Positions 8,982-63,725 of a DNA stretch of 64,000 nucleotides are shown here, in pieces. The position numbers and the translations under genes are program-made. Origin of the DNA: a virus; the IMG/VR virus record IMGVR_UViG_3300029996_000158; one strand, given 5' to 3'. Each line of letters begins with the position of its first letter. Position 1 is the first letter of the stretch. Below the pieces are notes generated by a model. That model was given only the letters and a program-made list of their open reading frames with translations. It had not been told where the DNA came from and did no database searches.

Positions 8982-9012
8982 GTCTCTAGAACTCAAAATA
9001 AAAAAGCAAATT

Positions 9013-11192: not shown

Positions 11193-11200
11193 TAACCACT

Positions 11201-11623: not shown

Positions 11624-11656
11624 GTTTCCATAATAATAACATAATCCTGAATGACT

Positions 11657-11686
11657 GGGAGACCTAAAAAGTCTCCCTTTCTTTTT
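11657..11686 (+). terminator. Rho-independent terminator
   Basis: GGGAGAC (11657..11663), a 7-nt loop, GTCTCCC (11671..11677), then TTTCTTTTT. Confidence 0.7.
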
Positions 11687-11900
11687 GTGAATCAGAAAAT
11701 TCCTACCAACAAAGGCCCAAACCGAAAAGAGCCTTTACCTTATGACAATTATTGTAATCCTGATTTTAAGAATCACCCAATAAATTACTTCCTACGCCCT
11801 ATAACACATCCTGACCCAATATTCAGGAACTCAATCCTACACTTACCCACTGGGAGCAAAATTATTATATAATATATGATTGGAATAAAAATATAATTAT

Positions 11901-11908
11901 TATATTTG
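11901..11908 (+). promoter_or_regulatory. -7 box TATATTTG (no clear -33 element)
   Basis: TATATTTG lies 33 nt upstream of ATG 11941. The -33 position lacks TTTG. Confidence 0.35.
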
Positions 11909-11940
11909 CATTGTATTATTAACAACTAAAATTTATTTTT

Positions 11941-12498
11941 ATGGAAACAAAAAATTATTTAGAGAGAGTAAACGAATTAAATGCAATTGCAACTAATTTA
12001 TTTATGGGACCCACAAAACCCAATTACAAACTTGCCATAATTACGACCATAGACTATGCAGGAGCCTATGGACTTGCATTACCTGGCAGCCTAAACCTTA
12101 TTAATAACGAATACTTCGAAATAACGGGTAATCCAGAACTCGAGGGTTACTTTGCCCAAGTAACCTCCTTACCCTTTACCACTCAGGAAAACCTAAAACG
12201 ACAAATCGCTTTAATAATAAATTACAACATAATTTACCTAAATAACTGGTTAAACTCCAATCCTGACGATGGGGACTATTTCGACTATATACCTAGCTTA
12301 ATCGACCAAATGCTCCAACTAATAAACTTAGGCTTTAAAACCTTGGACACTTTTAAAACGGAATACAACCATATTTACGAAAAACTCCAAACACAAATTA
12401 ATAAATATAACGAAATGGACCCCGAAAACGGTGCAAACCATATTAACCTAAATACCTTCACCTTAACCGAAGGTTACATGATACATATGCACCTATAA
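11941..12498 (+). CDS. Hypothetical protein
   Basis: Track ORF. It is noticeably richer in C and in CpG than the flanking early genes. Confidence 0.6.
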   Translation: METKNYLERVNELNAIATNLFMGPTKPNYKLAIITTIDYAGAYGLALPGSLNLINNEYFEITGNPELEGYFAQVTSLPFTTQENLKRQIALIINYNIIYLNNWLNSNPDDGDYFDYIPSLIDQMLQLINLGFKTLDTFKTEYNHIYEKLQTQINKYNEMDPENGANHINLNTFTLTEGYMIHMHL

Positions 12499-12515
12499 AA
12501 AACCTAAACCCAATT

Positions 12516-12547
12516 AGGAGCCCTCAACAATGGGCTCCTTTTATTTT
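12516..12547 (+). terminator. Rho-independent terminator
   Basis: AGGAGCCC (12516..12523) / GGGCTCCT (12532..12539), followed by TTTTATTTT. Confidence 0.7.
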
Positions 12548-12601
12548 CGCCTTAAAGGGACCACCTACGCCCTTTAAGCAAAATTAGCAAATTTTATCAA
12601 T

Positions 12602-12646
12602 CGCTTGAATCCTTATATCGCTTGAAAATAACCACATACGCTTGAA
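12602..12646 (+). promoter_or_regulatory. Three direct CGCTTGAA repeats (candidate protein-binding sites)
   Basis: CGCTTGAA at 12602..12609, 12619..12626 and 12639..12646, with start-to-start spacing of 17 and 20 bp. Confidence 0.5.
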
Positions 12647-13030
12647 AACCTTTTACTATCTAATCTTTCCTTATCTATCAAAGAAACAAGGCAATATATA
12701 AACCCTATTCTAGAGCCTCAAAGAATTTAAACATATTTACTCTAATGGCCATAATTCTATTATTTCTAAGAAATATTACTTCCTACCTGATTTACTACAT
12801 ACCCAATCCTAAATATATAACCCAATATAAATACCAACAAATCGATTTCCTAAAACTATACATACCTAATCAGATAATTAATATATTGCTAACAACGCAT
12901 GTGCACCTTTCAGGCATACCAACAATGGTTCCCATCAACAAGGGCCTAATCTTACTAACGCCTTCAGACCCCCGTGGCAAATTTGTAAAAAATTGTAAAA
13001 AGAAATAAAAATAAAAATTATTTATTTTCA

Positions 13031-13082
13031 TTCTAAATAATTTTTTATTTAGAAAATTTCTAAATAATTTTTTTCTAAATAA
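13031..13082 (+). promoter_or_regulatory. TTCTAAATAA repeats (3 direct, 1 inverted) upstream of a promoter
   Basis: TTCTAAATAA at 13031, 13058 and 13073. An inverted copy TTATTTAGAA lies near 13046. The promoter at 13100 follows immediately. Confidence 0.5.
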
Positions 13083-13099
13083 TAATTTTTATTTTTTAA

Positions 13100-13130
13100 C
13101 TTGCACAATAAAAATAAAAGCCCTATATTT
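13100..13130 (+). promoter_or_regulatory. Bacteroidota-type promoter
   Basis: TTG (13100..13102), a 20-nt spacer, TATATTTG (13123..13130), upstream of ATG 13212. Confidence 0.55.
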
Positions 13131-13211
13131 GTAACGTAATCGAAAGGGAGATATTTCCTAATTCATTACACATTATTATATTATTGTTTAACTTTCTAAT
13201 TTTTTTTATTT

Positions 13212-13571
13212 ATGGAAACAAAAAATTTTATCGACGAATTATTAACAAGTGACGTATTTGTTAAAAATTCAAATGGAAAAAAATCCTCAATTTATAAGAG
13301 GGAATTATTTGCGGGATTGTTGGACGACGACAAAAAAAAATTACGTAGAAAGTTACGTAAAACTTTACAAAACAAATTTTTAGCCACATTTTTAACAATT
13401 CGTAAAAATGAAACTGAATTGAAAAAATTGTCAAAAATTTGGGTTGAATACGCAAACAAAGTATATAATAATATAGATATTGTTTGCGAATCAAATACAG
13501 ATATTGAAACGCAAAAACTAATTAAGCAATTTTTGGAATCAATGAAAAATTGTGCTGCAAAAACAAAATAA
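13212..13571 (+). CDS. Hypothetical basic protein
   Basis: Track ORF behind promoter 13100..13130. K/R-rich (KKKLRRKLRKTLQNK). Confidence 0.6.
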   Translation: METKNFIDELLTSDVFVKNSNGKKSSIYKRELFAGLLDDDKKKLRRKLRKTLQNKFLATFLTIRKNETELKKLSKIWVEYANKVYNNIDIVCESNTDIETQKLIKQFLESMKNCAAKTK

Positions 13572-13626
13572 ATTTCTAATTGAGTAGGGGGATAAACTCC
13601 CCTACTCCAAAAATCAAAAAAAAATA

Positions 13627-13944
13627 ATGAAAAGGGAAAATAAACGTTATATTAACTTTGTCAGAAAGGAAATACAAAACGAATTAGATATTTTTCAAAG
13701 TTTTTTTTCAACTCCAATTTTTGAAAAAAAAGTTGTGTATAAAGACGGGGATAAGATTTATATTTGCTTTCGTGATAATGAAAAGTTTTTAGAAAAATTT
13801 AATCAAAATTTTTACAAAGACTTAAAAAGAAAAATTCTTATCTCGATTCGTTCTAAACTAATTCGTGATAAAAAATTTAAGTTAAAACGATTGGTCAATT
13901 TTGAAAAACAAAATATTACTGCAATCATTTATGAAACTCTTTAA
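13627..13944 (+). CDS. Hypothetical basic protein
   Basis: Track ORF, followed by strong terminator 14011..14040. Confidence 0.6.
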   Translation: MKRENKRYINFVRKEIQNELDIFQSFFSTPIFEKKVVYKDGDKIYICFRDNEKFLEKFNQNFYKDLKRKILISIRSKLIRDKKFKLKRLVNFEKQNITAIIYETL

Positions 13945-14010
13945 TGATTTATAATAAGGAAAGGTTATTTATCGAAATGGAATAATATTTTTTAGTTAAT
14001 TAAGTTAATA

Positions 14011-14040
14011 AGGGGGACAAAATTTGTCCCCTATTTTTTT
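14011..14040 (+). terminator. Rho-independent terminator
   Basis: GGGGACAAA (14013..14021) / TTTGTCCCC (14023..14031), followed by a T7 run. Confidence 0.75.
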
Positions 14041-14406
14041 ACATTATTTTGTTAAATATTGGACACCCTACCCCCCTCTAAATGCCACTACCCAAACAGC
14101 CTATAGTAATGGGCCCACTGGGGGATTGAACTACTGAACAACTAAGGTAACGAACAACTAAAAGAACTTTAAGAACAAGGAGAATAAGGAACCCCAAAAA
14201 AATCTGAACACCCCCTATCCCATTTCATAAACCAAAACCCAAATTATCCCTCAAGCCCAATTTCAAAAAAAAATCCAATCCCATATATAGTAATGGGTTC
14301 CCAAAAATCCTTATAAATCCAAACCTTATTTCAATTAAAAAGGGCTACCTCTAAGAAAATATAAATATATCTTCAAAGAGATAACCCTAAAATAAAAACT
14401 AAAACT

Positions 14407-14643
14407 CTAGAAAAGAATATAAAGAATAAATCCTATGCCATATAAAATAACCATAACTGAATTCCATAAATCCTTATTGAATACTTTATTCAAATGGTCA
14501 AATACAATTGAGATTAGGTTTAATATTAAAACCAGGGAAAGGATTACTACCAATATAATGGATTTCTCATCACCAGCAAAATATTGCATTAGGAAAAACC
14601 CAAAAGAAAATCCAAAGAATAGATTTATAATATCTCTTGTCAT
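14407..14643 (-). CDS. Small membrane protein
   Basis: 78 aa with 2-3 hydrophobic helices (LFFGFSFGFFLMQYF, IILVVILSLVLILNLISIVF, VMVILYGIGFILYILF). 4-nt overlap with the upstream gene. Confidence 0.6.
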   Translation of the reverse strand: MTRDIINLFFGFSFGFFLMQYFAGDEKSIILVVILSLVLILNLISIVFDHLNKVFNKDLWNSVMVILYGIGFILYILF

Positions 14644-14939
14644 CCTACTACCTTTATATCAAATAAACCTTCAATTTCCTCTATGGTAATTCCAAGGGAT
14701 TCCAATTCCAATCTAAGGATATCAAATTCCTCATCTGTAGTTTCAGATATACTGGTTTCCGATAAATGCCTGAATGTAATATAATTATTAAAGGATAGGA
14801 TATTCCTATTATTATCTACACTTAATAGGACCTTGAAATTAATTGCCATATCAGATGATATAGAATTTATAATTCCAATAAATTTACTAAATTTAGCTGT
14901 ACCTTTGATGGTAACTAAGGTTCCTTTTTCTAATTCCAT
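14640..14939 (-). CDS. Hypothetical protein
   Basis: Track ORF in a tightly packed minus-strand array. Confidence 0.6.
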   Translation of the reverse strand: MELEKGTLVTIKGTAKFSKFIGIINSISSDMAINFKVLLSVDNNRNILSFNNYITFRHLSETSISETTDEEFDILRLELESLGITIEEIEGLFDIKVVG

Positions 14940-14942
14940 AAT

Positions 14943-15140
14943 TTATAAACTTTTTTTAAAAAATCCACTATCAATTAATTCAACTATAATAATTACTATC
15001 AATGATGCTGGACTAAGGACTACAAGGAATAAACCCCATAATAAATCCCTAATAGTACATTTATCATTCCATTTTAATTTAATTAGAATAGCTGAAACTA
15101 TTATTACACTAAGTATGCAGTATATTATAACCAAGGTCAT
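14943..15140 (-). CDS. Small membrane protein
   Basis: 65 aa with two hydrophobic helices (LVIIYCILSVIIVSAILI, LLWGLFLVVLSPASLIVIIIV). Confidence 0.55.
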   Translation of the reverse strand: MTLVIIYCILSVIIVSAILIKLKWNDKCTIRDLLWGLFLVVLSPASLIVIIIVELIDSGFFKKSL

Positions 15141-15143
15141 TGC

Positions 15144-15914
15144 TTATTCCTCCCATTCTATCTTTTGTATTCTAATAACATTAGCTGTGGTTTCTCTTGC
15201 AATTTTCTCGGCAGTTTCTTTATCATATATAGCTTCTTTATGAATAATTATCCATCCCTCTTTCTCCTGGGGGAGCATCATTAAGTCATGGTTATGACAT
15301 TTTCCTGATTCATATAACCCATCTTTGGTATAGCTGTATACAGACTCGCTATAAGTGCCTTCATTTACCAAGGCCACAATAGAAAAGTCTTGCCCGTCAT
15401 AAAGATACTTTCTGTCAAAGCAAATAATCCTTGCCTTTCTTCCATCTCTCGTGCAGACTGGTTTGCCTGCTTTGGCTGCTTCAAGGTTAAATTCTTTTAA
15501 GTTTAATTTCTTTTCTTTCATATCTTCTTTGTTTTGTTTAATCTCTACAAATATCTCATCTTTTAGGCATGAATATGCAGGTTGATGGTTTATATAGTAA
15601 CTCAATTTGCAGTTTCTTGAAAAATTATCATAAAAAGCACAATTATTACAAAGAGAATCAGGGACCTTTATTTTCTGATATGATTTATTCTCTACCATAA
15701 TTGGATTCCCAACCTTTTCAAGTTTCCTAAAAACTACGGATTTATAATCTTTCCTATAAGGTGGTAAACAATTTCCTATTATATTAAGTACATTATTACA
15801 ACAAATATTATTATGAGTATTGAAATGGCATATAATACACCCATACCCAGTATTCTCAATACATTGGTACCAATTATCCTGATAATTAAATATTTCACCT
15901 ATTTTTCGTTCCAT
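15144..15914 (-). CDS. Hypothetical Cys-rich protein
   Basis: 256 aa. The N-terminal half has many Cys (CIENTGYGCIICHFNTHNNICCNN...CNNCAFYDNFSRNC). The C-terminal half (AGKPVCTRDGRKARIICFDRK...) has no function I can name. Confidence 0.65.
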   Translation of the reverse strand: MERKIGEIFNYQDNWYQCIENTGYGCIICHFNTHNNICCNNVLNIIGNCLPPYRKDYKSVVFRKLEKVGNPIMVENKSYQKIKVPDSLCNNCAFYDNFSRNCKLSYYINHQPAYSCLKDEIFVEIKQNKEDMKEKKLNLKEFNLEAAKAGKPVCTRDGRKARIICFDRKYLYDGQDFSIVALVNEGTYSESVYSYTKDGLYESGKCHNHDLMMLPQEKEGWIIIHKEAIYDKETAEKIARETTANVIRIQKIEWEE

Positions 15915-16234
15915 AATTCCAATTGTTTCCTTTCTCTTTTTTCCTGTAATTCATATACATTTTCATATAAGTCTCTAATCTTCTTAAAGGTAATTTTAAT
16001 TTTTCTAGAACCTTCTAGTTTTACACTTACCCTTTCCATATAACCTCTAGTTTCAAAATTACTTCTATATCCCAAAACTGTTGTATGTGAATAACCAAGG
16101 TCATTTATTAAATCCATAAAATCAAATTTTTCACCTACTGGTATTTGATTAAATCTTTTCCTAAGGATATCAAATTTACTCATAATATTAATTGTTTTAT
16201 ATTGAATATGTCTACTATATCTCAATTTGGTCAT
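15899..16234 (-). CDS. Hypothetical protein (weak winged-helix resemblance)
   Basis: Track ORF. ATG 16234 abuts the T-run of the upstream terminator, so the internal ATG at 16183 (MSKFDIL...) is an alternative start. DLINDLGYSHTTVLGYRSNFETRGYMERV is HTH-like. Confidence 0.55.
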   Translation of the reverse strand: MTKLRYSRHIQYKTINIMSKFDILRKRFNQIPVGEKFDFMDLINDLGYSHTTVLGYRSNFETRGYMERVSVKLEGSRKIKITFKKIRDLYENVYELQEKRERKQLELWNEK

Positions 16235-16266
16235 AAAAAAATTCCTCTACTTGGAATAGAGGAATT
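16235..16266 (-). terminator. Rho-independent terminator (minus strand)
   Basis: AATTCCTCTA (16240..16249) / TAGAGGAATT (16257..16266). The plus-strand A-run at 16235..16240 reads as a T-run on the minus strand. Confidence 0.7.
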
Positions 16267-16300
16267 GAATAGTAAAAGAAGGAAGAACCAAATACTTCTT

Positions 16301-16777
16301 TTATCTTAAAATTTCAATATTAATACATTCTAATCCCCAAGATTCTTCCATACTGGGGTCAAAATTACCAGTTGTAGAGATTTGTAAGCCACCAAACATA
16401 AATTTTTTACCAGTAGAACTTTGGGAAGTAGAAGTAAGGTATACAGTAGTAAAATTTCTTTGTAAATCATTAGCATTACTGGGGTCAAAATCAATACCGT
16501 GTAAATCAACATATTTATTGTCACTTACCATAATATTACAATATCTTTCTGAAGTAACAATATTCTGAATAACAGAACATGCAAATAGACGTATCAATGG
16601 TGTATTATCACTTCTAGTAACATATATATCAAATGCAATATCACTTGGAGTTAGAGATTTGGCTGACCCACTATTGAATACATTGGTCAAATAAAATCCC
16701 ATTTCTGGGGTAAGGCTATCAAGTTTTACTTCAAACCCATCTAACTCTTCTTTGGGTATAATTGGAATTATTAACAT
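16301..16777 (-). CDS. Hypothetical protein
   Basis: 158-aa track ORF followed on the minus strand by terminator 16235..16266. No motif recognised. Confidence 0.65.
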   Translation of the reverse strand: MLIIPIIPKEELDGFEVKLDSLTPEMGFYLTNVFNSGSAKSLTPSDIAFDIYVTRSDNTPLIRLFACSVIQNIVTSERYCNIMVSDNKYVDLHGIDFDPSNANDLQRNFTTVYLTSTSQSSTGKKFMFGGLQISTTGNFDPSMEESWGLECINIEILR

Positions 16778-16917
16778 ATTATTTTCTTTTTTTTTGGGTT
16801 ATTATTTGGTTCTTCATATCAGAATAGTATATAAAAAAAAATACCACCCAGATTTTCGCAAACCCAGATGGTAGGAACAGTGAAACAATAGACATTCAGG
16901 AATGAGTAATACTATGG

Positions 16918-17121
16918 TTATTTTTTAAAAAGTGTTATTACTGTATATAATAGTAAACTAAGAATTAATATTGGGGATATCATAAATACAGTAGTCATTA
17001 TAAAAAAGTGTCTTAAGTTATTCTTTACACCTTTTACACCTGATTTTCTAACAGTATAATCTATTGCTACTGTTAATATTAACCCAATAAAGTATATCAG
17101 AATTAGAATCTTTATTCCCAT
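16918..17121 (-). CDS. Small membrane protein
   Basis: 67 aa with two hydrophobic helices (ILILIYFIGLILTVAI, FFIMTTVFMISPILILSLLLYTVI). Confidence 0.55.
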   Translation of the reverse strand: MGIKILILIYFIGLILTVAIDYTVRKSGVKGVKNNLRHFFIMTTVFMISPILILSLLLYTVITLFKK

Positions 17122-17740: not shown

Positions 17741-18751
17741 ATGGGTAAATTAAGAGTACTTGGAGTATGTGGAGCTCAAGGAGCTTTATTATTCCCATTT
17801 AAAAAGTATTTAATTGGTAATATTGAACCAAGAGCAGTATTTCATACAAAAAATGAAGAACAATGGAAATTAAATTTTGGTGAAATACCTTTCAAAAGAG
17901 ACCCTGAATCATTTAAAGGCCAAGTAGATATTATAATTGGTTCCCCTTCTTGTGGTCATTCTAGTGTTTTTAGTTATTCAAGGAAGAAAACCCTTGGTAA
18001 ACCAAAAGAAGATAAAACTTTGAATCTATTTTTAACCTCTTTGAGCATGTTTAAACCCAAAATATTCTTAATGGAAAACCTTCCAAAACTTTTTGATTTA
18101 ATTCCAAGAGAAGAATGGGAAGCAAAATTGCAAAATTATCACTTAATTGTTCATTGCCATTCAGTATTTGACTTTGGTAATTCACAAAAATCACGAAAAA
18201 GACTGATTTTAATTGGTATAATGAAGGATTCTGACATAAAAATATCCAATTTTGAGGATATTTTTCCAGTATCAACCCCAATTTTAGTATCAGAAATTGA
18301 AAAATTAGTGAGAAAGGACTTAAATTTCAGAGAAAATGATGATAAAAAGCTAGCTATGTATCATCATTCTGATAAATCCAAGAAAACTTTAACAGTAAAA
18401 GAAGTAAAAAACTTATGGTTAGGTGAATTTAAGAAGGAATATAAATGGCCAATGAAAAATACCAAAATGAAAACATTACCAGGAGTGTATAGGAATAGAA
18501 AAAACAGTTATCCATTAACTGTAAGACCATCAAATAGGCAATTTAATCCCAATGGTGATATTATGGGGTTAGAGGAATATCGGATTATTATGGGATTCCC
18601 AAAAAGGTTCAAGGTATATATGGATATGAATAATTTAAATTATTGGCTCAATAAAGGAAGAAATACATTAACAAAAGGCTCAGTTTATGAGGTTGGAATA
18701 TGGTTTAAAAAATGCCTAAAAAAACAATTCAGGAATATGGAAACCCCCTAA
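17741..18751 (+). CDS. DNA (cytosine-5) methyltransferase-like protein
   Basis: The C5-MTase motif order is visible. Motif I VLGVCGAQGAL; IV IIIGSPSCGHSS (catalytic Cys, SC instead of PC); VI FLMENLPKL; VIII SQKSRKRLILIG; IX/X IMGFPKRF...TLTKGSVYEVG. Confidence 0.65.
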   Translation: MGKLRVLGVCGAQGALLFPFKKYLIGNIEPRAVFHTKNEEQWKLNFGEIPFKRDPESFKGQVDIIIGSPSCGHSSVFSYSRKKTLGKPKEDKTLNLFLTSLSMFKPKIFLMENLPKLFDLIPREEWEAKLQNYHLIVHCHSVFDFGNSQKSRKRLILIGIMKDSDIKISNFEDIFPVSTPILVSEIEKLVRKDLNFRENDDKKLAMYHHSDKSKKTLTVKEVKNLWLGEFKKEYKWPMKNTKMKTLPGVYRNRKNSYPLTVRPSNRQFNPNGDIMGLEEYRIIMGFPKRFKVYMDMNNLNYWLNKGRNTLTKGSVYEVGIWFKKCLKKQFRNMETP

Positions 18752-54457: not shown

Positions 54458-54868
54458 ATGGCAAAGAAACAAAAACAAAAAGGGTTAATTAAACTTGAAG
54501 ATACTGATATATTGAAACCAATCGATATTTCTAAAATAGGTTCAAATGGGGACCCATGTTTTGGAAAGGAATATAACCTATCAACCAAGGAATGCAAGAT
54601 GTGTGGGGATTCAGAATTATGCTGCATAAAATTTGCAGCATTAGTTGGGAAAGATAGAAAACAATTGGAAAAAGAGAATGAATTTAAAGACTTAGAAAAT
54701 CTAGTAGATTTAAAAGCAGTATCAAAAACTATTAGATATTTGAAAAGGAAAGATGAATCCAAAAAAACAATCCTTGATAAGATTCAAGCAAAATATGAAT
54801 TGAGCAGGGAAGAAGCTAGAACAATTTATAAATCAGTAATAAACAAACAAAATGGAAAAAAACAATGA
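54458..54868 (+). CDS. Basic protein with Cys cluster (possible zinc ribbon)
   Basis: CFGKEY...CKMCGDSELCC; K-rich. Confidence 0.55.
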   Translation: MAKKQKQKGLIKLEDTDILKPIDISKIGSNGDPCFGKEYNLSTKECKMCGDSELCCIKFAALVGKDRKQLEKENEFKDLENLVDLKAVSKTIRYLKRKDESKKTILDKIQAKYELSREEARTIYKSVINKQNGKKQ

Positions 54869-55376
54869 ATTAATTTTCACAAGGGTAAGAGATGTACAAT
54901 TACCCAAGAGAGCAAATCAACATGATGCAGGAATAGACTTCTTCTGTCCAGTTCTAGATGATGAATTAATCCAAAGAATCAATGAAATTAATCAGGATAA
55001 GAATGTTATTATATCTCCTGATTTTATTATGGTAGCTCCTGGTGCAGATATAACAATCCCATCAGGGGTAAAAGTTTGGATAATGAATAAAGAATCTGCT
55101 TTAGTTGCAGCAAATAAATCTGGATTAGCAACAAAGTTTAGTATTCAATTCACTGCTCAAGTAATAGATGCAGATTACACTGGGGAAATTCATATTGGAA
55201 TAAGGAATCATGGAAAAGACTTCTTTATGATTAAACCTGGTGCAAAGTTAATACAATTCCTACATTTACCAATCATATTATCAGATATCATAGAGGTAGG
55301 TAATGATGGGTATAATGATATTGTTGATGGGAAATCAGATAGGGGAGAAGGAGGATTTGGTTCAACTGGATTTTGA
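54852..55376 (+). CDS. dut: dUTP pyrophosphatase (trimeric dUTPase)
   Basis: All five motifs are present: AGIDF, NKSGLATK, VIDADYTGEI, KLIQF, RGEGGFGSTGF. Confidence 0.9.
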   Translation: MEKNNELIFTRVRDVQLPKRANQHDAGIDFFCPVLDDELIQRINEINQDKNVIISPDFIMVAPGADITIPSGVKVWIMNKESALVAANKSGLATKFSIQFTAQVIDADYTGEIHIGIRNHGKDFFMIKPGAKLIQFLHLPIILSDIIEVGNDGYNDIVDGKSDRGEGGFGSTGF

Positions 55377-55452
55377 TTATGGAAAATACAAATATACAAC
55401 AAGAGTTAAATGATATTTATATCCCTGATTGGTATATTAAAGACTGAGTGAT

Positions 55453-56337
55453 ATGGATTCAAGAGATATAAAAGAAGAACCAAGTATTCCAAAAGATAAT
55501 AAGTATCTGGAATCAATATATGAAATGCAAAAACAACTACTAGATAGTTATATAAGCATTGAAGGGTTACCAAAATACCCATTAAATATAAACACAAAAA
55601 CCAATCAATTAATCCTAAAAGATTTTACTTCAAGGGTAATTGAGGAACTTGCAGAAGCTTATGAGAGTTTATTATTAGTGGAGGAATTAACAATAACAAA
55701 ACAAAATTGGTTCACTATATCATCAACTTCAATTGATTCTTTTGTTGAATGTATGAATCATTTGCAAAATGCAAGTGAAGAAATGGCAGATGCTTTACAT
55801 TTCTTCATTGAGTTGTTAATTTACACTAATATACAACCAGAAGATATTAATTCATACATTGAAAGTAAATTACCAAAGAATAAGAGACAAAACTTCTCAA
55901 ATACACTTGAATATGGGATGGCATTGGGTAAACAATGGTTAACAAATATGAACCAAGTACCAGATGTAAAGAAGAAGAATTTGGTAAACTTAATTCATAA
56001 GTATGAACAAGTAAAGGTTGATTTTGATATACCAGAGTATAATATTAAACTTTTACATTGTGGTGAAGACTACAATTATGAACTTTATAATTCATACAAA
56101 AGTTATCTTTGGGATATAACCTATGAACTGAATATATCAAGGAATTTCCTTAAAAATAAACCATGGAAGCAATCTCAAATGATGACCAATGAATCAGCTT
56201 ATCAAGAGGAGATAGTAAAGTCATTTATATTATTCCTTGGTACATTGAATATAATGGGAGTAAATGGAAGTAATCTGTATTATATTTACTTCAAGAAGAA
56301 TAAGATAAACCAATTCAGAATAAAATCTAAGTATTAA
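55453..56337 (+). CDS. All-alpha NTP pyrophosphohydrolase-like protein (MazG / dimeric dUTPase-dCTPase type)
   Basis: Acidic helix pattern VIEELAEAYE ... ASEEMADALHFFIELL ... NKPWKQ, as in dimeric dUTPase/MazG-like enzymes. At 294 aa it is longer than typical members. Confidence 0.5.
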   Translation: MDSRDIKEEPSIPKDNKYLESIYEMQKQLLDSYISIEGLPKYPLNINTKTNQLILKDFTSRVIEELAEAYESLLLVEELTITKQNWFTISSTSIDSFVECMNHLQNASEEMADALHFFIELLIYTNIQPEDINSYIESKLPKNKRQNFSNTLEYGMALGKQWLTNMNQVPDVKKKNLVNLIHKYEQVKVDFDIPEYNIKLLHCGEDYNYELYNSYKSYLWDITYELNISRNFLKNKPWKQSQMMTNESAYQEEIVKSFILFLGTLNIMGVNGSNLYYIYFKKNKINQFRIKSKY

Positions 56338-57329
56338 TGAAAAGTTTTGTATTTAAAACCGGAGATGAAGCTTGGGCAAGTATAAACAAAATGTTTATTG
56401 AACAAGATGAAAAATTAGGATTATTTTCTGATGGACAAGGGGCTTCAATAACTAATTCACTATATACTTATGGAATGTCAGTATTGATAGAAGAAGCCAA
56501 ATTTGACCCAGAATTTGATTTTGGGAAGATAATGGGTTATACTCAATCTAAATGGAGCAGTTTATTAAATAACTATTTGGACCTTGATTCATTGGATAAA
56601 TTAAAACTACAAATAAGGGAACTTGAAAAAAATAAAGCCATAAACAGAAATTATCATATTGGTTTTAATTTTGCAGATTCTCATGGTAATGGTAAAGGTT
56701 GCTTAGTTTCTGGGATGTTCTCAAGGATGATAGGTATTGATAAACCAAGGCTTACAATAGTAATGAGAGCTTCAGATGTTGTAACAAGGTTACCTTGGGA
56801 TTTATTATTGGCTATAAGAATGGGAGAATATGTTTTTGGTCATACAGAGTTTACCATAGAATTATTTATCCGTTCAGCTTTTGCAGATGATACTAGTTTA
56901 ATGCTTTATAATGGATATGAACCCATAGAACCCATCATTGAGAAAATAAAAAATGAAGAAAGGAGAAAGAGATTAAAGAAAGCATTAAAAAGAGTAAAGA
57001 AAGCATCAGAAAAAGGTGATGACCCAAAATATCAAGCTTATATGAGGGTATATAAGATATTCAGCCCAGAGAAATATGGTAAAGAATTTAAATCACTTTT
57101 TGCTAAGGATTGCATTATTGGTAATTGGGATGGAATACCATTGCCAGAAGTATGCCCCTCTATACTTGTAAGGAATCAAATAAAGAAGGTATACTTAAAA
57201 TTTGTGAACAAGTATAACCTAAATATCTTTTCAAGTGTAGATACCAAAAAGAAACTGATAAAGTTTAAGGAAAGTGATGGTTCCATAACTGATTCAATTG
57301 AAGATTTAGGTGAAGAAGATGAACAATAA
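56337..57329 (+). CDS. Divergent thymidylate-synthase-fold-like protein, paralogue A
   Basis: Its block order resembles ThyA. IRELEKNKAINRNYHIGF resembles LKNDPDSRRIIVSAW. GKGCLVSGMF...LTIVMRASDVVTRLPWDLLL resembles APCHAFFQF...QLYQRSCDVFLGLPFNI. It lacks the PC, QRS and DxH signatures. Confidence 0.4.
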   Translation: MKSFVFKTGDEAWASINKMFIEQDEKLGLFSDGQGASITNSLYTYGMSVLIEEAKFDPEFDFGKIMGYTQSKWSSLLNNYLDLDSLDKLKLQIRELEKNKAINRNYHIGFNFADSHGNGKGCLVSGMFSRMIGIDKPRLTIVMRASDVVTRLPWDLLLAIRMGEYVFGHTEFTIELFIRSAFADDTSLMLYNGYEPIEPIIEKIKNEERRKRLKKALKRVKKASEKGDDPKYQAYMRVYKIFSPEKYGKEFKSLFAKDCIIGNWDGIPLPEVCPSILVRNQIKKVYLKFVNKYNLNIFSSVDTKKKLIKFKESDGSITDSIEDLGEEDEQ

Positions 57330-58074
57330 TATAATTTGGTTTCCAGACCCTCTTCTAGCTTGGGAATATTTTAATGAAGCATTTCTAAGTGGGGAAGGGG
57401 GTCTCCCTTTTGTATTTCATACAACAACTGCTACTTATGTGTATGATTTAGTATTTGGTATAGTAGACCCAAGATTACCAAATAACATTGATTTTGGGAA
57501 ATTATTCAATTATTCCTCAGCAAAATGGACATTACTAGTATCTAATTATTTAGATAGGTATGTTATGGATAATACCAAACGAGAGGTTACTAGTCTACAT
57601 AAAAAGGGGTTGGTATATAATTATTCAATGCCTTTTACCAATAACCATAGTCACGGTAAGAAATGTCTATTATCAGTAGTTTTTAGTAAAAGATGTAATG
57701 AAACTAATCCTACAATATCCGTTTATTTAAGGGCATCTGAAGTAACAAAAAGGTTAATATTTGATTTCCTCCTTATTCAGAGGATAGGGGAATATGTTTA
57801 TGGTAACAATAACTTTAAAATGGTATTCCATGTAAACCAGATGTTCAATGATAATACAGTATTATTAATGTATCATGCTTATAAAGATATTAAAGGCATT
57901 TTAAAGAATAAAAAGGATAAGAGAAGTATAAAACTATTGGAAAATTTAAATATTTTTCTAGAGAAGCCAATAGATAGCATAAAATATAAAATCCATAAAA
58001 GGGTTGCAAAAGTTTTACAAAAGGGTATAAAAAAACCAAAAACATTAGTTAAGGATTGCAAACTACCATTTTGA
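57310..58074 (+). CDS. Divergent thymidylate-synthase-fold-like protein, paralogue B
   Basis: It parallels 56337..57329: DFGKLFNYSSAKWTLLVSNYLD, HGKKCLLSVVF, ISVYLRASEVTKRLIFDFLLIQRIGEYVYG. Confidence 0.4.
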   Translation: MKKMNNNIIWFPDPLLAWEYFNEAFLSGEGGLPFVFHTTTATYVYDLVFGIVDPRLPNNIDFGKLFNYSSAKWTLLVSNYLDRYVMDNTKREVTSLHKKGLVYNYSMPFTNNHSHGKKCLLSVVFSKRCNETNPTISVYLRASEVTKRLIFDFLLIQRIGEYVYGNNNFKMVFHVNQMFNDNTVLLMYHAYKDIKGILKNKKDKRSIKLLENLNIFLEKPIDSIKYKIHKRVAKVLQKGIKKPKTLVKDCKLPF

Positions 58075-58119
58075 TAACATAGAAATCTATTCTTATTAAA
58101 CCAATTAAACTTATTAGAT

Positions 58120-58854
58120 ATGAGAATTTATGATGATTGCTATGAATTAATGTCTGAGATGGGCAGAAATTTATGGGAAATGGGTTCTATAGTTAAACCT
58201 AAAACCTATCAAAATAAATCAATAGAAGGCAATGATAATTTTATAACAAAAGAACTTATTTGTGAACAATATTGCTTAACTAGAATGCCAGACCCAGAAT
58301 TTTTATTTACATATACAAAATGTAGAGAATGGGCAGATTTAGAGTTTCAAGAAAGAATATCCAATATGGAATGTAATCCAGGTGAAGCTTGGAAATTACG
58401 TAAAGATGTATGGGAAGAATTTTTGAATGATGAGGGTAAATTTGATTATACCTATTCAGAAAGAATGTTTTTAAATTTACCAAGGTTGATAGATTTATTA
58501 AAATCAGACAATGATACTAGAAAAGCAGTATTACCTATATTTAATGGTAATTATGAGGATGATACTGATTATTATAATGGTAAAAAACGTATCCCTTGTT
58601 CAATGTATTATGATTTTTTAGTAAGAGAAAATCAGAAAGGAGAAAAGGTATTAAATATTTGTTATCATCAAAGAAGTTCTGATTTTATAACCCATTTTGG
58701 TAATGATGTTTATCTTGCCTGGAAACTTATGGAATATGTTGCCAATAATATTGGGGTAAAAGCTGGTTATTTATACCATACAATAGATTCTATACATTCC
58801 TATAAAAAGGACTGGATTTTATTAAAAACATCATTAAATGATTTAAGAAGGTAA
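58120..58854 (+). CDS. Thymidylate synthase family enzyme (TS or pyrimidine hydroxymethylase; specificity unresolved)
   Basis: LLKSDNDTRKAVLPIFN, RIPCSMYYDF (catalytic PC), ICYHQRSSDFITHFGND (QRSxD), DSIHSY (DxHxY). Confidence 0.75.
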   Translation: MRIYDDCYELMSEMGRNLWEMGSIVKPKTYQNKSIEGNDNFITKELICEQYCLTRMPDPEFLFTYTKCREWADLEFQERISNMECNPGEAWKLRKDVWEEFLNDEGKFDYTYSERMFLNLPRLIDLLKSDNDTRKAVLPIFNGNYEDDTDYYNGKKRIPCSMYYDFLVRENQKGEKVLNICYHQRSSDFITHFGNDVYLAWKLMEYVANNIGVKAGYLYHTIDSIHSYKKDWILLKTSLNDLRR

Positions 58855-58861: not shown

Positions 58862-61800
58862 ATGAAAACCAGGTATCATATAATAAAGAATCGCAATGAA
58901 TTAGAAAAATTAGTAGAAGCATGCCTAAAAACTGGGTATGCTTCTGTTGACTTTGAAACTAATGCTGAACCAATATACAATGATACATTTAAACCAACCA
59001 TATTATCAGTAACTTTTCAACCTGGTTCTGGGGTATCAATCCCTTTACAACATTTTGAATGTGATAAGTTACATGTTAATAAAACTTGGTTAGAATGGTT
59101 AACTTATTTTGGTAGAAATGTAATTGAAAATCCAAATATAGTAAAGATAGCTTGGAACTGGAAATTTGATAATCAGATATTCCAAAGGTATAATATATAT
59201 TCAAGAGGTACTGTAATAGATGGGATGCTTGCTAAATACCTTTTAAATGAGGAAAGACCAAATGGTTTAAAGGATATGGTAAGAAGGTTTTTACCAGAAT
59301 TTTCTGATTATGAGAAATATGATTCCTTTGATTCAATCCCATGGTCAAAGAAACCCTTAAAAAAACTATGTGAATATGGTTGTATGGATACTGATTTTAC
59401 TTTTAGATTATCCATATTCTTTGAATCATTCCTAATCAAAAAAGGGTTTTATAATTTGTATAGGAATCTTATAATGTCAGCAAGTAAGGTATTACAAAGT
59501 GCTGAAAAAGCTGGTTTACCATTTGATATAGAATTAAATACCAAATTAAGGGAAAAATATAATAACCTTATAAATGAATATAATACCAAATTAAGGTCAA
59601 TAAGAACAGTTCAGAGATATCAAAATTATATAATAAAGAAAAGAAAAGAAGATTATATTGAAACTCTAGAAAATGAAATAGAAGAATTAAGGGAAGAGGG
59701 AAAAGATAGACAAGTAAAAACAAGGGAACAAAAATTATCCAGAATAATAGCTGGGGAGTATACAACAAAAAGTGAATTAAAATTAATTGAACCCATAAAC
59801 TTTAGTTCACAAAAACAAATGGTGGATTTATTATATAATTCTAATCATGGGTTTAAGTTACCAATAATTGCTTATACAATTGATAAACATAAAAAACCAA
59901 CAAATAACCCATCAACCGCAGAAGATATTTTAATAAAATTAAAAGAACATGATAAATCTGGGTTTATTGATACTCTTTTAGATTTAAGAGGAGTACAAAC
60001 AATAAATTCTACTTTTATTGTTGGGTTAGGGGATTTAGTACAAAGTGATAATAGAGTACACCCAACCTTTCTTATTCATGGTTGTGTATCATGTAATACT
60101 AAATTGATAGGTAAAGAAAATGATATAAGGATAGAGGATATATGTCCTAAAGAAGTAGGGGTATTAAATGTAGAAGATAAGGATATATGGGTATTATCTC
60201 ATGAGGGTACTTGGGAACAAGTAACACATACCATAAATAAGGGCAAACAACCCTTATATAAAATCACTACTAAAGATGGTGATATATTAAGGTGTACAAA
60301 GGAACATAAACTTTTAACACCAAAGGGGTGGAAGAGGGTATCATATATATTTAAGCATAACCTAAACGTGGTAATGTATGATACTTCAAAATTAGATATA
60401 ACTAAACCAATTGTAGGTAAAAAATATGATGAGATAATATTTAGGGATATACCAGGTTGGGATGGGTACATAGCTTCATCAGAGGGCAAAATATATTCAG
60501 TAAAAATCCCAGGTGGAAGGGGTATGTTGGATTATAATCATCCACATGAATTAGTTCCAAGGGAATGGAAACCTGGGAGGTTAAGAGTGTATCTGAGGAA
60601 TAACTCTAAAAAGAAGTATTCTTTCTCAGTGTCCCATTTGGTATGGATGGCTTTTAATAATAAGTTACATATACCAGAAAAGATGGTAATAGACCATATA
60701 AATTGTAATACTCTTGATAATAGACCTGAGAATCTACAGTGTATAACCTATTCAGAAAATATAAAGAGAGCTTATACATGTACTAGAACAGCATTTACTA
60801 GTAATGGTATTAATGGTACTAATAAATTTAATACACTGACCATTTCTAAAGTACTAGAAGATTATCAGAATGGGCATACTCAAGCAGAAATATGTGAAAG
60901 GTATAATATATCCCAAAAACAGGTATCAGGTATAGTTAATGGTCAGAGGAGAAAAGATATATATCTAACAAAATTGGTATCAATGGAATATGAGGGGGAG
61001 AAGACCATATATGATTTATCAGTAAATGATAAGCATAGTTATATAACTAGGTCGAACTTTATAAACTCCAATACAGTTAGCGGAAGATTGTCAAGTAGAA
61101 ATCCCAATGGTCAAAATATACCAAAGACCATGGTAAATCCAGATGTTAAATTGCAATTTATTCCCCCAAAAAATCAATTATTCCTATGTTATGATTATTC
61201 ACAAGCTGAATTGAGAATATTAGCACATTTAGCAAATGAAGATACAATGTTGGAGTGGTTTAGAACTGGAAGGGATATCCATCTTGCTTCAGCCTGTAAA
61301 AAATATCATGAGGATTATGATAAAATAATTAAGATATATCAAGATGAACAGCATCCTGAATATAAATTATGGAAAAAGAGGAGAAAGCAAGCGAAGACTA
61401 TAAATTTTGGGATAGTTTATGAACAATCAGCTGCAAAATTAGCTGAAAGTTTATCTACTCCAGAAGAACCAGTATCAAAAGAAGAAGGTCAACAATTTCT
61501 AGATGATTACTTTAAAACCTTCCCAAAAATAAAAAAATTCATGGAAAGACAACATAAGTTCATGGAAAAACATGGATATTGTGTTTCACTTTTTGGTAGA
61601 AGGAGAAGATGTCCAAAAGTATATTCAGAGAATTATGGGGAATATCTTGAAGCATTAAGACAAAGCACAAACATGCCATGTCAAAGTGCAGCTTCAGATA
61701 TGGCACTATTTGCTTCTGTTATTGTATATAATAAAGTAAAAAAAGGGGAATTACCCCCAATGAAAGAAGTAAATACTGTACATGACTCTGTATATCAATT

Positions 61801-62107
61801 TATTTTACCTAAATATATTACACCAGATACCATATATAATATATGGGATATATGCAGAAACCCATCTACAAAGGAATATTTTGGATTCTCAATTGATGAT
61901 GTAGATATGTCAATGGATTTTACTATTGGTAGAAATATGGCAGAGGAATTACCATATATTCCCGGGTATGATTATAATAAATTACTAAGAGATGATTTTG
62001 ATATAGATGAGTATTATAAAGAGTATAATAAGTATCGGGATATATCAATATCTGAATACCCCAATAAATTCAAAAAATACTTTAAGGAATCATGGAGAAA
62101 AAGGTAA
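58862..62107 (+). CDS. polA: Family A DNA polymerase with 3'-5' exonuclease, interrupted by an intein
   Basis: Exo motifs SVDFETN, NWKFDNQIF and YGCMDTDF. Pol motif A LCYDYSQAELRILAHL, motif B RRKQAKTINFGIVYEQS, motif C VHDSVYQF. The TGRLSS block (TVSGRLSSRNPNGQNIP) is separated from HPTFLIHG by a 330-aa insert. Confidence 0.9.
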   Translation: MKTRYHIIKNRNELEKLVEACLKTGYASVDFETNAEPIYNDTFKPTILSVTFQPGSGVSIPLQHFECDKLHVNKTWLEWLTYFGRNVIENPNIVKIAWNWKFDNQIFQRYNIYSRGTVIDGMLAKYLLNEERPNGLKDMVRRFLPEFSDYEKYDSFDSIPWSKKPLKKLCEYGCMDTDFTFRLSIFFESFLIKKGFYNLYRNLIMSASKVLQSAEKAGLPFDIELNTKLREKYNNLINEYNTKLRSIRTVQRYQNYIIKKRKEDYIETLENEIEELREEGKDRQVKTREQKLSRIIAGEYTTKSELKLIEPINFSSQKQMVDLLYNSNHGFKLPIIAYTIDKHKKPTNNPSTAEDILIKLKEHDKSGFIDTLLDLRGVQTINSTFIVGLGDLVQSDNRVHPTFLIHGCVSCNTKLIGKENDIRIEDICPKEVGVLNVEDKDIWVLSHEGTWEQVTHTINKGKQPLYKITTKDGDILRCTKEHKLLTPKGWKRVSYIFKHNLNVVMYDTSKLDITKPIVGKKYDEIIFRDIPGWDGYIASSEGKIYSVKIPGGRGMLDYNHPHELVPREWKPGRLRVYLRNNSKKKYSFSVSHLVWMAFNNKLHIPEKMVIDHINCNTLDNRPENLQCITYSENIKRAYTCTRTAFTSNGINGTNKFNTLTISKVLEDYQNGHTQAEICERYNISQKQVSGIVNGQRRKDIYLTKLVSMEYEGEKTIYDLSVNDKHSYITRSNFINSNTVSGRLSSRNPNGQNIPKTMVNPDVKLQFIPPKNQLFLCYDYSQAELRILAHLANEDTMLEWFRTGRDIHLASACKKYHEDYDKIIKIYQDEQHPEYKLWKKRRKQAKTINFGIVYEQSAAKLAESLSTPEEPVSKEEGQQFLDDYFKTFPKIKKFMERQHKFMEKHGYCVSLFGRRRRCPKVYSENYGEYLEALRQSTNMPCQSAASDMALFASVIVYNKVKKGELPPMKEVNTVHDSVYQFILPKYITPDTIYNIWDICRNPSTKEYFGFSIDDVDMSMDFTIGRNMAEELPYIPGYDYNKLLRDDFDIDEYYKEYNKYRDISISEYPNKFKKYFKESWRKR
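60083..61072 (+). mobile_element. Intein (330 aa) with nested HNH homing endonuclease
   Basis: It starts at Cys408 (CVSCNTKL, block A) and has block B DILRCTKEHKLLT (TxxH). It ends ...IYDLSVNDKHSYITRSNFINSN, followed by Thr (+1). The interior holds WDGYIASSEGKIYS (NUMOD4-like), IDHINCNTLDNRPENLQCITYSENIKRA (HNH) and an HTH (AEICERYNISQKQVSGIV). Confidence 0.8.
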
Positions 62108-62543: not shown

Positions 62544-62915
62544 ATGAGAGTAGATTTAAATCTTATCAGTTCATCAGTTGCAAAGGAACTTAGCAAACAT
62601 TTAATCGGGTTACCATCAGAGAATAGGGTATTACTAGCATTACCAGATGAAGAAAAGAAAGTAGGTAATATAATATTACCAGGAAATGTAACTGAGGGAG
62701 TACCTAAATTAGGAGTTATAGTAAAAAGAGGTCCTATAACAGAAGAATATAATAGTTATTTGGATTCAGTAGAGATTGGTAATATTATATTCTTTGGTAA
62801 TTATGCTGGTAAAGAGATAGAACCTTCATTTACAGAGAATTATGAAATACCTAAATTGAAATTCACAGTACTATCTTTAAATGAGATTATATATTGGGAA
62901 CCTCAAAATAATTAA
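62544..62915 (+). CDS. groES: Co-chaperonin GroES / T4 gp31-like
   Basis: ENRVLLALPDEEKKVGNIILPGNVTEGVPKLGVIVKRGP...IGNIIFFGNYAGKEIE follows the Cpn10 pattern. Confidence 0.65.
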   Translation: MRVDLNLISSSVAKELSKHLIGLPSENRVLLALPDEEKKVGNIILPGNVTEGVPKLGVIVKRGPITEEYNSYLDSVEIGNIIFFGNYAGKEIEPSFTENYEIPKLKFTVLSLNEIIYWEPQNN

Positions 62916-62918: not shown

Positions 62919-63725
62919 ATGGGAAAGAAAAAAGTTAAAAAACCATCATCAACCATGAGTACAAGGGAGAGAATGATGGCAAGGAAAAAACAATTTGAAA
63001 CAAAGGGTTCAAATTCTGGTATTATTTACCCAAAAGAGGGTACAATGAGATTAAGATTAATATCTCAGGGACCAGATAAAGAACTTGGTTTGGAGATTAT
63101 TCAATTCTATCTTGGTAAAGAAAAAGGTGGTATAATTTCACCAGCTACTTTTGATGAACCATGCCCATTCATGGAAAAATACAGGGAACTAAAATCCTCA
63201 TCAGATGAAGATGACCAAAAGTTAGCAAAGAATCTTTCCCCAAGAAAAAGATATATAATGGGTTGTACCTGTTATAAAGATAATAATGGAAAGGAAATAG
63301 ACCAAGATAGGATTAGAAAACCAATATTATTCCCAAATTCAGTATATAGGGATATAACTGATTTATACCTTGATGAAGATGATTGGGGAGATATGACTGA
63401 CCCAGAAAATGGTTATGATATTAAAATAACAAGGTCTGGTAATGGTTTAATGGACACTACATATTCAGTATCCCCATGCCCAAATAGGAAACCTCTAAAA
63501 CCAAAATACGTAGAAGATATGGATTTAGAGGAAATAATAAGGGGTCATATAAAATCTTATGATGAATTGGAGGAAATGCTAGATGAGTATTTAAATGGGT
63601 CATCAAGTTCAAAAGATGACGATGATGACTTATCAGTAAAACCAAAGAAAAAAGATAAAGATTCAAAAAAGAAAAAAAAGAAGAAAGAAAAGAGTTATGA
63701 TGACGATGATGACTTACCATTTTAA
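62919..63725 (+). CDS. Single-stranded DNA-binding protein (T4 gp32-like)
   Basis: Block order resembles gp32 (MRLRLISQGPD, EPCPFMEKY, KRYIMGCTCYKD, DMTDPENGYDIKITRSG...YSVSPC). It has an acidic/basic low-complexity tail ending DDDDDLPF. Confidence 0.6.
   Translation: MGKKKVKKPSSTMSTRERMMARKKQFETKGSNSGIIYPKEGTMRLRLISQGPDKELGLEIIQFYLGKEKGGIISPATFDEPCPFMEKYRELKSSSDEDDQKLAKNLSPRKRYIMGCTCYKDNNGKEIDQDRIRKPILFPNSVYRDITDLYLDEDDWGDMTDPENGYDIKITRSGNGLMDTTYSVSPCPNRKPLKPKYVEDMDLEEIIRGHIKSYDELEEMLDEYLNGSSSSKDDDDDLSVKPKKKDKDSKKKKKKKEKSYDDDDDLPF

Follow-up and report, generated by a model that had tools for sequence, protein, structure and literature searches.

A phage gene cluster with two uncharacterised branches of the thymidylate synthase superfamily, a candidate module for cytosine-nucleotide modification

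A stretch of 64,000 nucleotides from IMG/VR virus record IMGVR_UViG_3300029996_000158 (the window) contains a cluster of genes related to thymidylate synthase (TS) and to deoxynucleotide pyrophosphatases, placed directly in front of a DNA polymerase gene. The window has a G+C content of about 29% and codes for phage functions that include a baseplate wedge, an endolysin, a DnaB-like helicase, a primase, a second helicase, a gp32-like single-stranded DNA-binding protein, and a family A DNA polymerase. Human-gut and other metagenomes are rich in contigs of 75-86 kb that are nearly identical or related to it, and its closest GenBank records are two uncultured phages from human faeces, "Phage DP SC_2_H4_2017" and "SC_6_H4_2017". 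The five open reading frames (ORFs) that an initial annotation had placed in the cluster are all present on the plus strand and are closely packed: a trimeric dUTPase (Dut, 54852..55376), an all-alpha nucleoside triphosphate (NTP) pyrophosphohydrolase (55453..56337), two paralogues of a family called X here (A, 56337..57329, 330 amino acids; B, 57310..58074, 254 amino acids), and a TS-family enzyme of a distinct clade, called TS' here (58120..58854). The stop of the pyrophosphohydrolase gene and the start of paralogue A overlap by 1 nucleotide, A and B overlap by 20 nucleotides, and 7 nucleotides separate the end of the TS' gene from that of DNA polymerase I (PolA). The initial annotation spoke of three TS-fold genes; there are three in the window, but they consist of a duplicated X gene plus a TS with Arg143 and Asp177, a pair that is widespread in phages.

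TS' matches the Pfam TS family (Thymidylat_synt, PF00303, 2e-12) and phrog_160 (8e-25). Its residues were mapped by alignment to E. coli ThyA, T4 gp42, RB69 gp48, SPO1 gp29, and the PaMx74 TS, and are given in ThyA numbering. The match to ThyA that had been reported holds for the catalytic core, which aligns and retains Cys146, Arg166, Ser167, Asp169, His207, Tyr94, Arg126, Glu58, and Trp80, but it does not extend to the functional residues, the tail, or the equivalog scores. The base-specificity residue in the FGND segment, which the initial annotation had singled out for checking, is Asp and not Asn at position 177 in three independent alignments, and its spacing from Arg166 (+11) is that of Asn177 in ThyA and Asp179 in T4 gp42. 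Position 147 is Ser and not His, position 143 is Arg (Leu in ThyA), and position 173 is His (Gly in ThyA). The C-terminal tail of ThyA is missing, the protein ending about 25 residues past Tyr209, and the NCBIfam equivalogs for ThyA give scores of 41.7 against a cut-off of 174.6 (TIGR03283) and 32 against a cut-off of 327 (NF002495). Judged from its sequence, TS' is not a canonical ThyA, as it fails Asn177, His147, Leu143, Gly173, the C-terminal tail, and the equivalog cut-offs. The clade itself is consistent: RIPC and RSSD...HFGND occur in 120 of 120 close TS' homologues, and Arg143 is found in the same 120 and in all members from cultured phages.

Asp177 gives a preference for dCMP (PMC13326640), and it is the TS homologues combining Asp177 with a residue other than His at 147 that occur on viral contigs with modified cytosine (PMC8670742). 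TS' is predicted to act on dCMP. The product is harder to read from published codes. Leu at position 143 has been correlated with methyl products and Asp or Glu with hydroxymethyl products (PMC13326640); because this position is Arg, TS' fits neither the "methyl" nor the "hydroxymethyl" code. Compared with a gp42-type dCMP hydroxymethylase, TS' has the Asp of the 177/179 site, the catalytic Cys, and no tail, but not the acidic residue at 143; compared with a dCMP methyltransferase of the Xp12/PaMx74 type, it has Asp177, but not Gly173 or the tail, and the window has no adjacent deaminase. The reading of TS' as a PaMx74-type methylase is weakened by the missing tail and His173. The best PDB sequence match of TS' is AfhB (8e-9), with MilA at 2e-3, and the AfhB match made a 5-hydroxy-dCMP synthase a candidate as well. 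The mark of the flavin-dependent 5-hydroxy-dCMP synthases is D169N (PMC13326640), and this candidate was ruled out because TS' keeps Asp169.

The two paralogues between the pyrophosphohydrolase and TS' are clearly related to each other (BLASTP 1e-38, 32% identity over 249 residues), and A retains an ancestral C-terminal extension. Neither A nor B matches any Pfam model, including PF00303, or any NCBIfam model, and more distant members of the X family also have no Pfam domain. In PHROGs, A matches only a group of unknown function. PDB sequence searches with A, B, and the family profile gave nothing meaningful (citrate synthase and centrin, E > 0.2), so the fold was revealed only by structure prediction and profile-profile comparison. 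AlphaFold2 models were built on diverse alignments; the model of B has a predicted local distance difference test score (pLDDT) of 94.0 and a predicted template modelling score (pTM) of 0.91, and the model of A has a pLDDT of 87.7. The initial annotation had proposed AlphaFold and Foldseek as a check on the paralogues, and this check matched only TS-superfamily structures: the top 50 PDB matches listed for both models all belong to the superfamily. For B these include MilA (2.5e-6), T4 dCMP hydroxymethylase (6e-6), and AfhB (1e-4), and for A the best is AfhB (9iqu, 3.9e-5); template modelling scores (TM-scores) of these matches are modest, 0.4-0.57. Alignment of the X profile to a TS alignment by hhalign gave a probability of 94% and an E-value of 1.2e-7 over 204 columns. 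By these models, A and B belong to the TS superfamily at the level of fold.

The initial annotation described A and B as a degenerate TS-like pair. The paralogy, the TS-like order of sequence blocks, and the missing P-C, Q-R-S, and D-x-H strings all stand, but "degenerate" is wrong, because the paralogues retain functional counterparts of Cys146, Arg166, and Asp169 (which is Glu or Asp in them) and have Asp at the site that corresponds to 177. In the hhalign map, Cys119, Arg141, Glu144, Asp152, and Trp73 of B correspond to Cys146, Arg166, Asp169, Asn177, and Trp80 of ThyA, and the equivalents of the first four in A are Cys122, Arg144, Asp147, and Asp155. Conservation was assessed in 110 full-length, diverse relatives clustered at 50% identity. 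Only Tyr80, Cys119, Arg141, and Asp152 (B numbering) are absolutely invariant, and Glu144, Lys72, Trp73, and Tyr68 are nearly so. The site equivalent to 169 is Glu in 103 of the 110 relatives, Asp in 4, and Gln in 2, and thus does not carry the D169N signature. Such conservation is that of an active enzyme that has a Cys nucleophile and a specificity residue of the cytosine type. Other parts of the TS fold have changed: hhalign and secondary structure show a gap at the segment of the dimer-interface pair Arg126/127, His207 aligned to Leu, and the small domain much reduced, and a basic residue replaces Gly173 in X as it does in TS'. It has to be considered that the X paralogues are non-catalytic, serving as regulatory or scaffold subunits or as nucleotide-binding decoys with a TS fold while TS' alone does the chemistry. 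The absence from X of His207, of the Arg126/Arg127 loop, and of most of the small domain that binds folate would suit such a role, as would its faster evolution (identity among B-type copies is about 50%, against about 70% for the corresponding TS' copies), and the close coupling of its translation to that of TS' points to a stoichiometric complex. We nevertheless regard a non-catalytic X as doubtful, since the sole invariants in the 110 relatives are the presumptive nucleophile (Cys), phosphate clamp (Arg), and base-specificity site (Asp) together with one Tyr, a pattern of active enzymes and not of pseudoenzymes.

The X family is small. When 1.84 billion representative proteins were searched exhaustively with its profile, only 244 clusters were recovered, the longer members (365-483 amino acids) were checked for informative domain fusions and have none, and the searchable literature (PDB codes, GenBank names, and combinations of paralogue and dCTPase terms) holds no description of the family. 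An apparent decay of B into pieces of 200 and 68 amino acids in a near-identical contig from the Joint Genome Institute is an assembly artefact, with a run of N between duplicated sequence.

Both nucleotide hydrolases of the initial annotation are borne out. The ORF at 54852..55376 matches Pfam PF00692 (6e-12), phrog_135 (4e-27), and 56 solved trimeric dUTPases in the PDB (best 1.8e-14), including the C-terminal motif V, RGEGGFGSTG; direct reading of the sequence shows Lys in motif II in place of the usual Arg. Trimeric Dut is found in 71 of the 80 related loci described below, is missing from more distant phages that bear the module, and is an accessory part of the cluster. The ORF at 55453..56337 belongs to the dimeric dUTPase/dCTPase family PF08761 (dUTPase_2), scoring 31.2 bits and so lying above the gathering threshold of 22.9, and matches phrog_12184 (1e-20, category "nucleotide pyrophosphohydrolase"). 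T4 gp56, a dCTPase/dUTPase, matches the same Pfam family above the cut-off (25.4 bits, 2e-5), and BLASTP aligns the two proteins at a shared C-terminal motif (1e-3); the match to gp73 of Clostridium perfringens phage CPD4 is stronger (1e-24). The PF08761 gene always lies directly 5' of X. It is a candidate dCTPase that would supply dCMP to the TS-fold enzymes, and this is the economical assignment because the adjoining trimeric dUTPase would make a second pure dUTPase redundant.

The arrangement of the cluster has been retained in relatives. A survey of IMG/VR drew 80 loci from at least 476 matching stretches; the order pyrophosphatase-X-TS' is present in 79 of them, followed by PolA, and the exception is a truncated contig. 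X is present in two copies in 67 of the loci and in one copy in 12, while distant metagenomic phages have a single X gene directly after the PF08761 gene, usually followed by TS' and PolA. In a neighbour-joining tree, the A and B clades are sisters nested inside the X family, with A on the longer branch. A and B derive from a duplication of a single ancestral X gene, one that is lineage-specific because their clades are sister and nested. Five of the IMG/VR relatives (L029, L031, L032, L033, and L081) also have a canonical ThyA of 305-325 amino acids inside the same cluster, with Leu or Val at 143, His147, Gln165, Gly173, Asn177, and a C-terminal tail with IKAPLSVG. The order can be, for example, pyrophosphatase-A-ThyA-B-TS'-PolA, so that up to four TS-fold genes occur consecutively. 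The cluster is a hotspot for the gain of TS-fold genes, and because these five relatives add a canonical ThyA to it, X and TS' are not the dTMP synthase of the phage.

Additional genes in some relatives are of interest for what may happen to the product. Between TS' and PolA, 11 of the 80 IMG/VR loci and GenBank MT121964 encode an IspD-like cytidylyltransferase and a LicD-family transferase; in the GenBank record (L013) these lie at 7428-9048 and match PF01128 (1e-26) and PF04991 (8e-39). The two proteins are candidates for attaching a phospho-alcohol (of the ribitol-phosphate or phosphocholine type) to a hydroxyl group of modified DNA, or their genes may instead be a moron concerned with the host cell wall. 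A P-loop protein resembling nucleoside monophosphate (NMP) kinases is also encoded in relatives, beyond the region that matches the end of the window.

The module also occurs in cultured phages: C. perfringens CPD4, Pseudomonas phages Almagne and PMBT14, Serratia phage Serbin, Yersinia phage vB_YenM_P744, and Gordonia phage HippoPololi. These were not retrieved by tblastn of B against cultured phages, which gave uncultured gut phages only, but surfaced through matches to TS' and hidden Markov model (HMM) searches of the neighbouring genes. The CPD4 module is locus L016 (2421-5192), and others are among L018, L019, L021, and L022. The gene order is usually a "thymidylate kinase"-like gene, then the PF08761 pyrophosphatase, an X-like gene, TS', sometimes a cytidine/dCMP deaminase, and PolA. 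HMM searches identify the X-like proteins of CPD4 (8e-64), Almagne (3e-19), and HippoPololi (8e-9), and the Arg143/His173/Asp177 signature of TS' was confirmed in the same three phages. In Serbin, Almagne, HippoPololi, and P744, the X and TS' genes either overlap or directly adjoin each other, an arrangement suggesting that their products are partners translated together. X is annotated as a "hypothetical protein" in most records and, automatically, as a "pyrimidine hmase synthase" in P744.

The deaminase, which lies beside TS' in Serbin, P744, Almagne, HippoPololi, and locus L015, raises a different possibility, that of a 5-methylcytosine (5mC) pathway like those of Xp12 and PaMx74. TS' would make 5-methyl-dCMP, 5mC would replace cytosine, X would be an accessory subunit, and the deaminase of the relatives would turn part of the 5-methyl-dCTP into dTTP. 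ThyA requires its C-terminal tail to reach the closed state and to transfer hydride, and TS' has no such tail; His173 and Arg143 also speak against this pathway. The TS of PaMx74, cited as a homologue of the type that produces 5-methyl-dCMP (bioRxiv 10.1101/2024.12.05.627091), resembles ThyA in its Gly173, its LPYD, and its long tail at the C-terminus, and an X gene is lacking in PaMx74. The combination of an Asp177 TS, a protein like dCMP deaminase, an all-alpha pyrophosphatase, and PolA is nevertheless the published signature of 5mC phages, in which the deaminase converts 5-methyl-dCTP to dTTP (bioRxiv 10.1101/2024.12.05.627091), and the five deaminase genes named above adjoin TS' in just this way. 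No deaminase gene was seen in the window, however, and only one match was found across the 80 closest loci. For the phage of the window, we hold the 5mC pathway to be rather unlikely. In the same preprint, five of seven Asp177 TS homologues encoded near a deaminase made 5-methyl-dCMP, and two of seven gave no 5-methyl-dCMP when expressed alone (bioRxiv 10.1101/2024.12.05.627091); as a speculation, the latter might need an X partner.

Taken together, the cluster is read here as a pre-replicative module for cytosine-nucleotide modification, like that formed by gp56, gp42, and gp1 of T4 but with different TS-superfamily enzymes, and we put the probability of this reading at roughly 55%. The initial annotation had suggested a non-canonical pyrimidine route resembling gp42 and gp56 and going beyond the supply of dTMP, and this suggestion gains support from Asp177 of TS', the gp56-family pyrophosphatase, and the separate ThyA of relatives. 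The PF08761 pyrophosphatase would, judging from its family membership and gene order, convert dCTP and possibly dUTP to the monophosphate. TS' would bind dCMP through Asp177, Cys146 would attack C6, and a one-carbon unit would be added at C5. The exocyclic methylene would more likely react with water or a different nucleophile than undergo reduction to methyl, and we infer a hydroxymethyl-type product because TS' has neither the C-terminal tail nor the hydrophobic Leu143. X, in the form of A and B, would be a second class of TS-fold enzyme, which probably binds a cytosine nucleotide because it has equivalents of the nucleophilic Cys, the phosphate-binding Arg, the acidic residue at 169, and Asp177; it may act as an obligate partner of TS', in keeping with the translationally coupled genes, or in a further C5-tailoring step. 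The NMP kinase-like protein seen in relatives would phosphorylate the product, and the phage PolA would incorporate it into DNA, with the trimeric dUTPase keeping dUTP low in an accessory role.

Several observations weigh against this reading. Arg143 and His173 of TS' lie outside both published product codes, which makes the call of a product weak, and the mapping of X residues to ThyA is made at about 10% identity, although it is aided by the exact Arg-to-Asp spacing of +11. The annotated parts of the window contain no glycosyltransferase or DNA-level modifier (the structural block at about 20-44 kb was not scanned), no kinase was found inside the window, and the searchable literature holds no nucleoside analysis of this phage or of any carrier of the module. 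The phage and its relatives also have a gene resembling C5 cytosine DNA methyltransferases. In the window this divergent gene lies at 17741..18751 on the plus strand and matches PF00145 (1.2e-15), with the motifs GSPSCGHS and ENLP, while its score against TIGR00675 (3e-9) is below the cut-off; the GenBank title of one relative names a DNA cytosine methyltransferase. Such a protein would have no substrate if all cytosines already bore a substituent at C5. Finally, GATC occurs 2 times in the window against about 170 expected under a maximal-order Markov model, an observed/expected ratio (O/E) of 0.01 (z = -12.9), while other 4-mer palindromes containing C are not avoided (O/E 0.8-1.1). The near-absence of GATC means that the DNA is still exposed to at least one restriction specificity, and the depletion indicates that a host endonuclease specific for GATC has exerted strong selection. 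Together, the methyltransferase-like gene and the avoidance of GATC argue against blanket protection of the DNA. Among longer palindromes, ATGCAT is also low (2 against 12.4 expected).

The same observations bear on the alternatives. The GATC pattern could fit cytosines that are shielded from most enzymes but open to GATC endonucleases sensitive to adenine methylation, and could equally fit a single dominant host system acting on unmodified DNA. DpnII/MboI-type enzymes tolerate 5mC, and avoidance of GATC only would fit enzymes of this type acting on 5mC-containing DNA; the methyltransferase-like gene is likewise easier to square with 5mC than with 5-hydroxymethylcytosine (5hmC). Both observations also suggest ordinary cytosines exposed to host enzymes, as they would be if the cluster served ordinary nucleotide supply and the virion DNA were canonical. 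TS', with or without X, would then be an unusual thymidylate system or would act on pool intermediates only. The automated annotations (thymidylate synthase, dUTPase, and thymidylate kinase) and the lack of a downstream DNA-modifying transferase in the window are in line with ordinary supply. Against it stand Asp177 and Ser147 of TS', the Asp that X has at its counterpart of site 177, the scores of TS' far under the ThyA equivalog cut-offs, the true ThyA that relatives additionally encode within the cluster, and the published metagenomic link of Asp177 TS homologues to contigs with modified cytosine (PMC8670742; bioRxiv 10.1101/2024.12.05.627091). We consider ordinary supply very unlikely.

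A more far-reaching form of the cytosine-modification reading can be proposed. X and TS' may constitute an unrecognised two-component system of the TS superfamily, possibly a heterodimer, that installs on deoxycytidylate a C5 substituent other than methyl, hydroxymethyl, or hydroxy, which in relatives would be decorated by the IspD-like and LicD-family proteins. A new substituent might arise if the exocyclic methylene were captured by a nucleophile other than water, or alternatively by the use of a non-folate cofactor, an idea suggested by the basic residue that both proteins have at position 173 (Gly in ThyA) and by the loss from X of most of the small domain that binds folate. At present this proposal is speculative, and we consider it unlikely to be correct. 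If true, it would define a new class of phage DNA hypermodification spread across phages of Clostridium, Pseudomonas, Serratia, Yersinia, and Gordonia and abundant phages of the human gut.

Whichever product is made, the cluster contains two uncharacterised, co-inherited branches of the TS superfamily, X and TS', within a familiar pathway logic. To our knowledge, the pre-replicative pyrimidine modifications known so far all start from a single characterised branch of the TS family. The TS' clade has an active-site code outside all published product rules, and X, related to TS at the level of fold, is covered by neither Pfam nor NCBIfam. Without a Pfam model, X escapes association screens that work on domains, such as MetaGPA, and this invisibility may explain TS homologues that give no product when expressed alone. 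Modifications of phage DNA bases affect the action of restriction and CRISPR on phage DNA, and base-modification enzymes serve epigenetic sequencing, as in the discoveries concerning 5hmC, 5-hydroxycytosine (5hoC), and the 5mC deaminase. At least 476 IMG/VR stretches carry the module, and so do phages that are easy to culture; one of these, C. perfringens CPD4, has served in biocontrol work. Because there are cultured carriers, which base is made and why two TS-fold proteins are involved are questions directly answerable with existing assays.

PolA (58862..62107, plus strand) is the conserved neighbour 3' of TS' in related loci, and Pfam matches on an identical protein are DNA_pol_A_exo1, DNA_pol_A, Intein_splicing, and HNH_3; the intein is inserted at roughly 60080-61010 of the gene and carries the HNH_3 endonuclease. 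The size of PolA in relatives varies from 750 to 1399 amino acids, so intein content is variable, and in one relative (L003) RecA also has an intein, with a LAGLIDADG endonuclease. Downstream of the polymerase on the plus strand are a Cpn10/GroES-like co-chaperonin (62544-62915) and the gp32-like single-stranded DNA-binding protein, which has an acidic C-terminal tail (62919-63725). In some relatives (L002 and L003), Cpn10 is placed between X and TS'. Upstream, a conserved small ORF of 136 amino acids (54458-54868, plus strand) overlaps the dUTPase gene and has a Cys-rich segment, CFGKEYNLSTKECKMCGDSELCC; its sole match is phrog_13400, of unknown function (1e-3).

Farther from the cluster, about 1.2 kb at 9600-10830 has no ORFs and is dense in short direct and inverted repeats containing GGTACC and GGGCCC. 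Its left half is C-rich and its right half G-rich, with an AT-rich palindromic centre near 10170-10340. The stretch may be a replication origin, the genome terminus, or a regulatory hub; it matches no tRNA or Rfam family, and a scan of the whole window for these found none. From 8000 to 17000 the GC skew is strongly negative (to -0.26), with the listed ORFs mostly on the plus strand up to about 14 kb, while it is positive in the remainder of the window.

Among characterised systems, the 5hmC pathway of T4, with the gp56 dCTPase/dUTPase, gp42, the gp1 deoxynucleoside monophosphate kinase, and the ThyA encoded by td, offers a close comparison in overall logic. Both have a PF08761 all-alpha pyrophosphatase, and TS' resembles gp42 in its compactness, its Asp at the 177/179 site, and the lack of a C-terminal tail. 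A kinase gene accompanies the module in relatives, some of which have a separate canonical ThyA comparable to td, and both clusters adjoin the replicative polymerase. Unlike gp42, however, TS' has Arg143 and not Asp or Glu, and His173 and not Gly. The module always includes a second TS-fold family, X, of which the phage of the window has two copies; no glucosyltransferase has been found, a C5 DNA methyltransferase-like gene is present, and the polymerase belongs to family A and not to family B. SPO1 gp29, a dUMP hydroxymethylase, is also a TS-fold hydroxymethylase in a phage replication module, but gp29 has Asn177, in keeping with its action on uracil, as well as Asp143 and a long C-terminal extension.

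The 5mC pathway of Xp12 and PaMx74 consists of an Asp177 dCMP methyltransferase, a 5mC-selective deaminase, and a MazG-like pyrophosphatase. The module shares with it the grouping of an Asp177 TS, an all-alpha pyrophosphatase, and PolA, and the adjacent deaminase of cultured X/TS' carriers; it differs in that the PaMx74 TS, which lacks an X partner, resembles ThyA in its Gly173 and C-terminal tail, and in that the window has no deaminase. The flavin-dependent 5-hydroxy-dCMP synthases (HY126 AfhB, PDB 9iqu and 9iqc; RB69 gp48; DLP3 gp80) are, like TS', compact, tail-less TS-fold proteins with Asp177, and AfhB is both the best PDB sequence match of TS' and the best structural match of paralogue A. 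These synthases have D169N, which is absent from the module (TS' has Asp, X has Glu or Asp), and TS' keeps Trp80, which is missing in gp48. The CMP hydroxymethylase MilA (PDB 5jnh and 5b6d) is the top Foldseek match of B and also has Asp177, but the TM-scores are only 0.47, and MilA belongs to a bacterial antibiotic pathway, acts on a ribonucleotide, has Asp143, and is larger.

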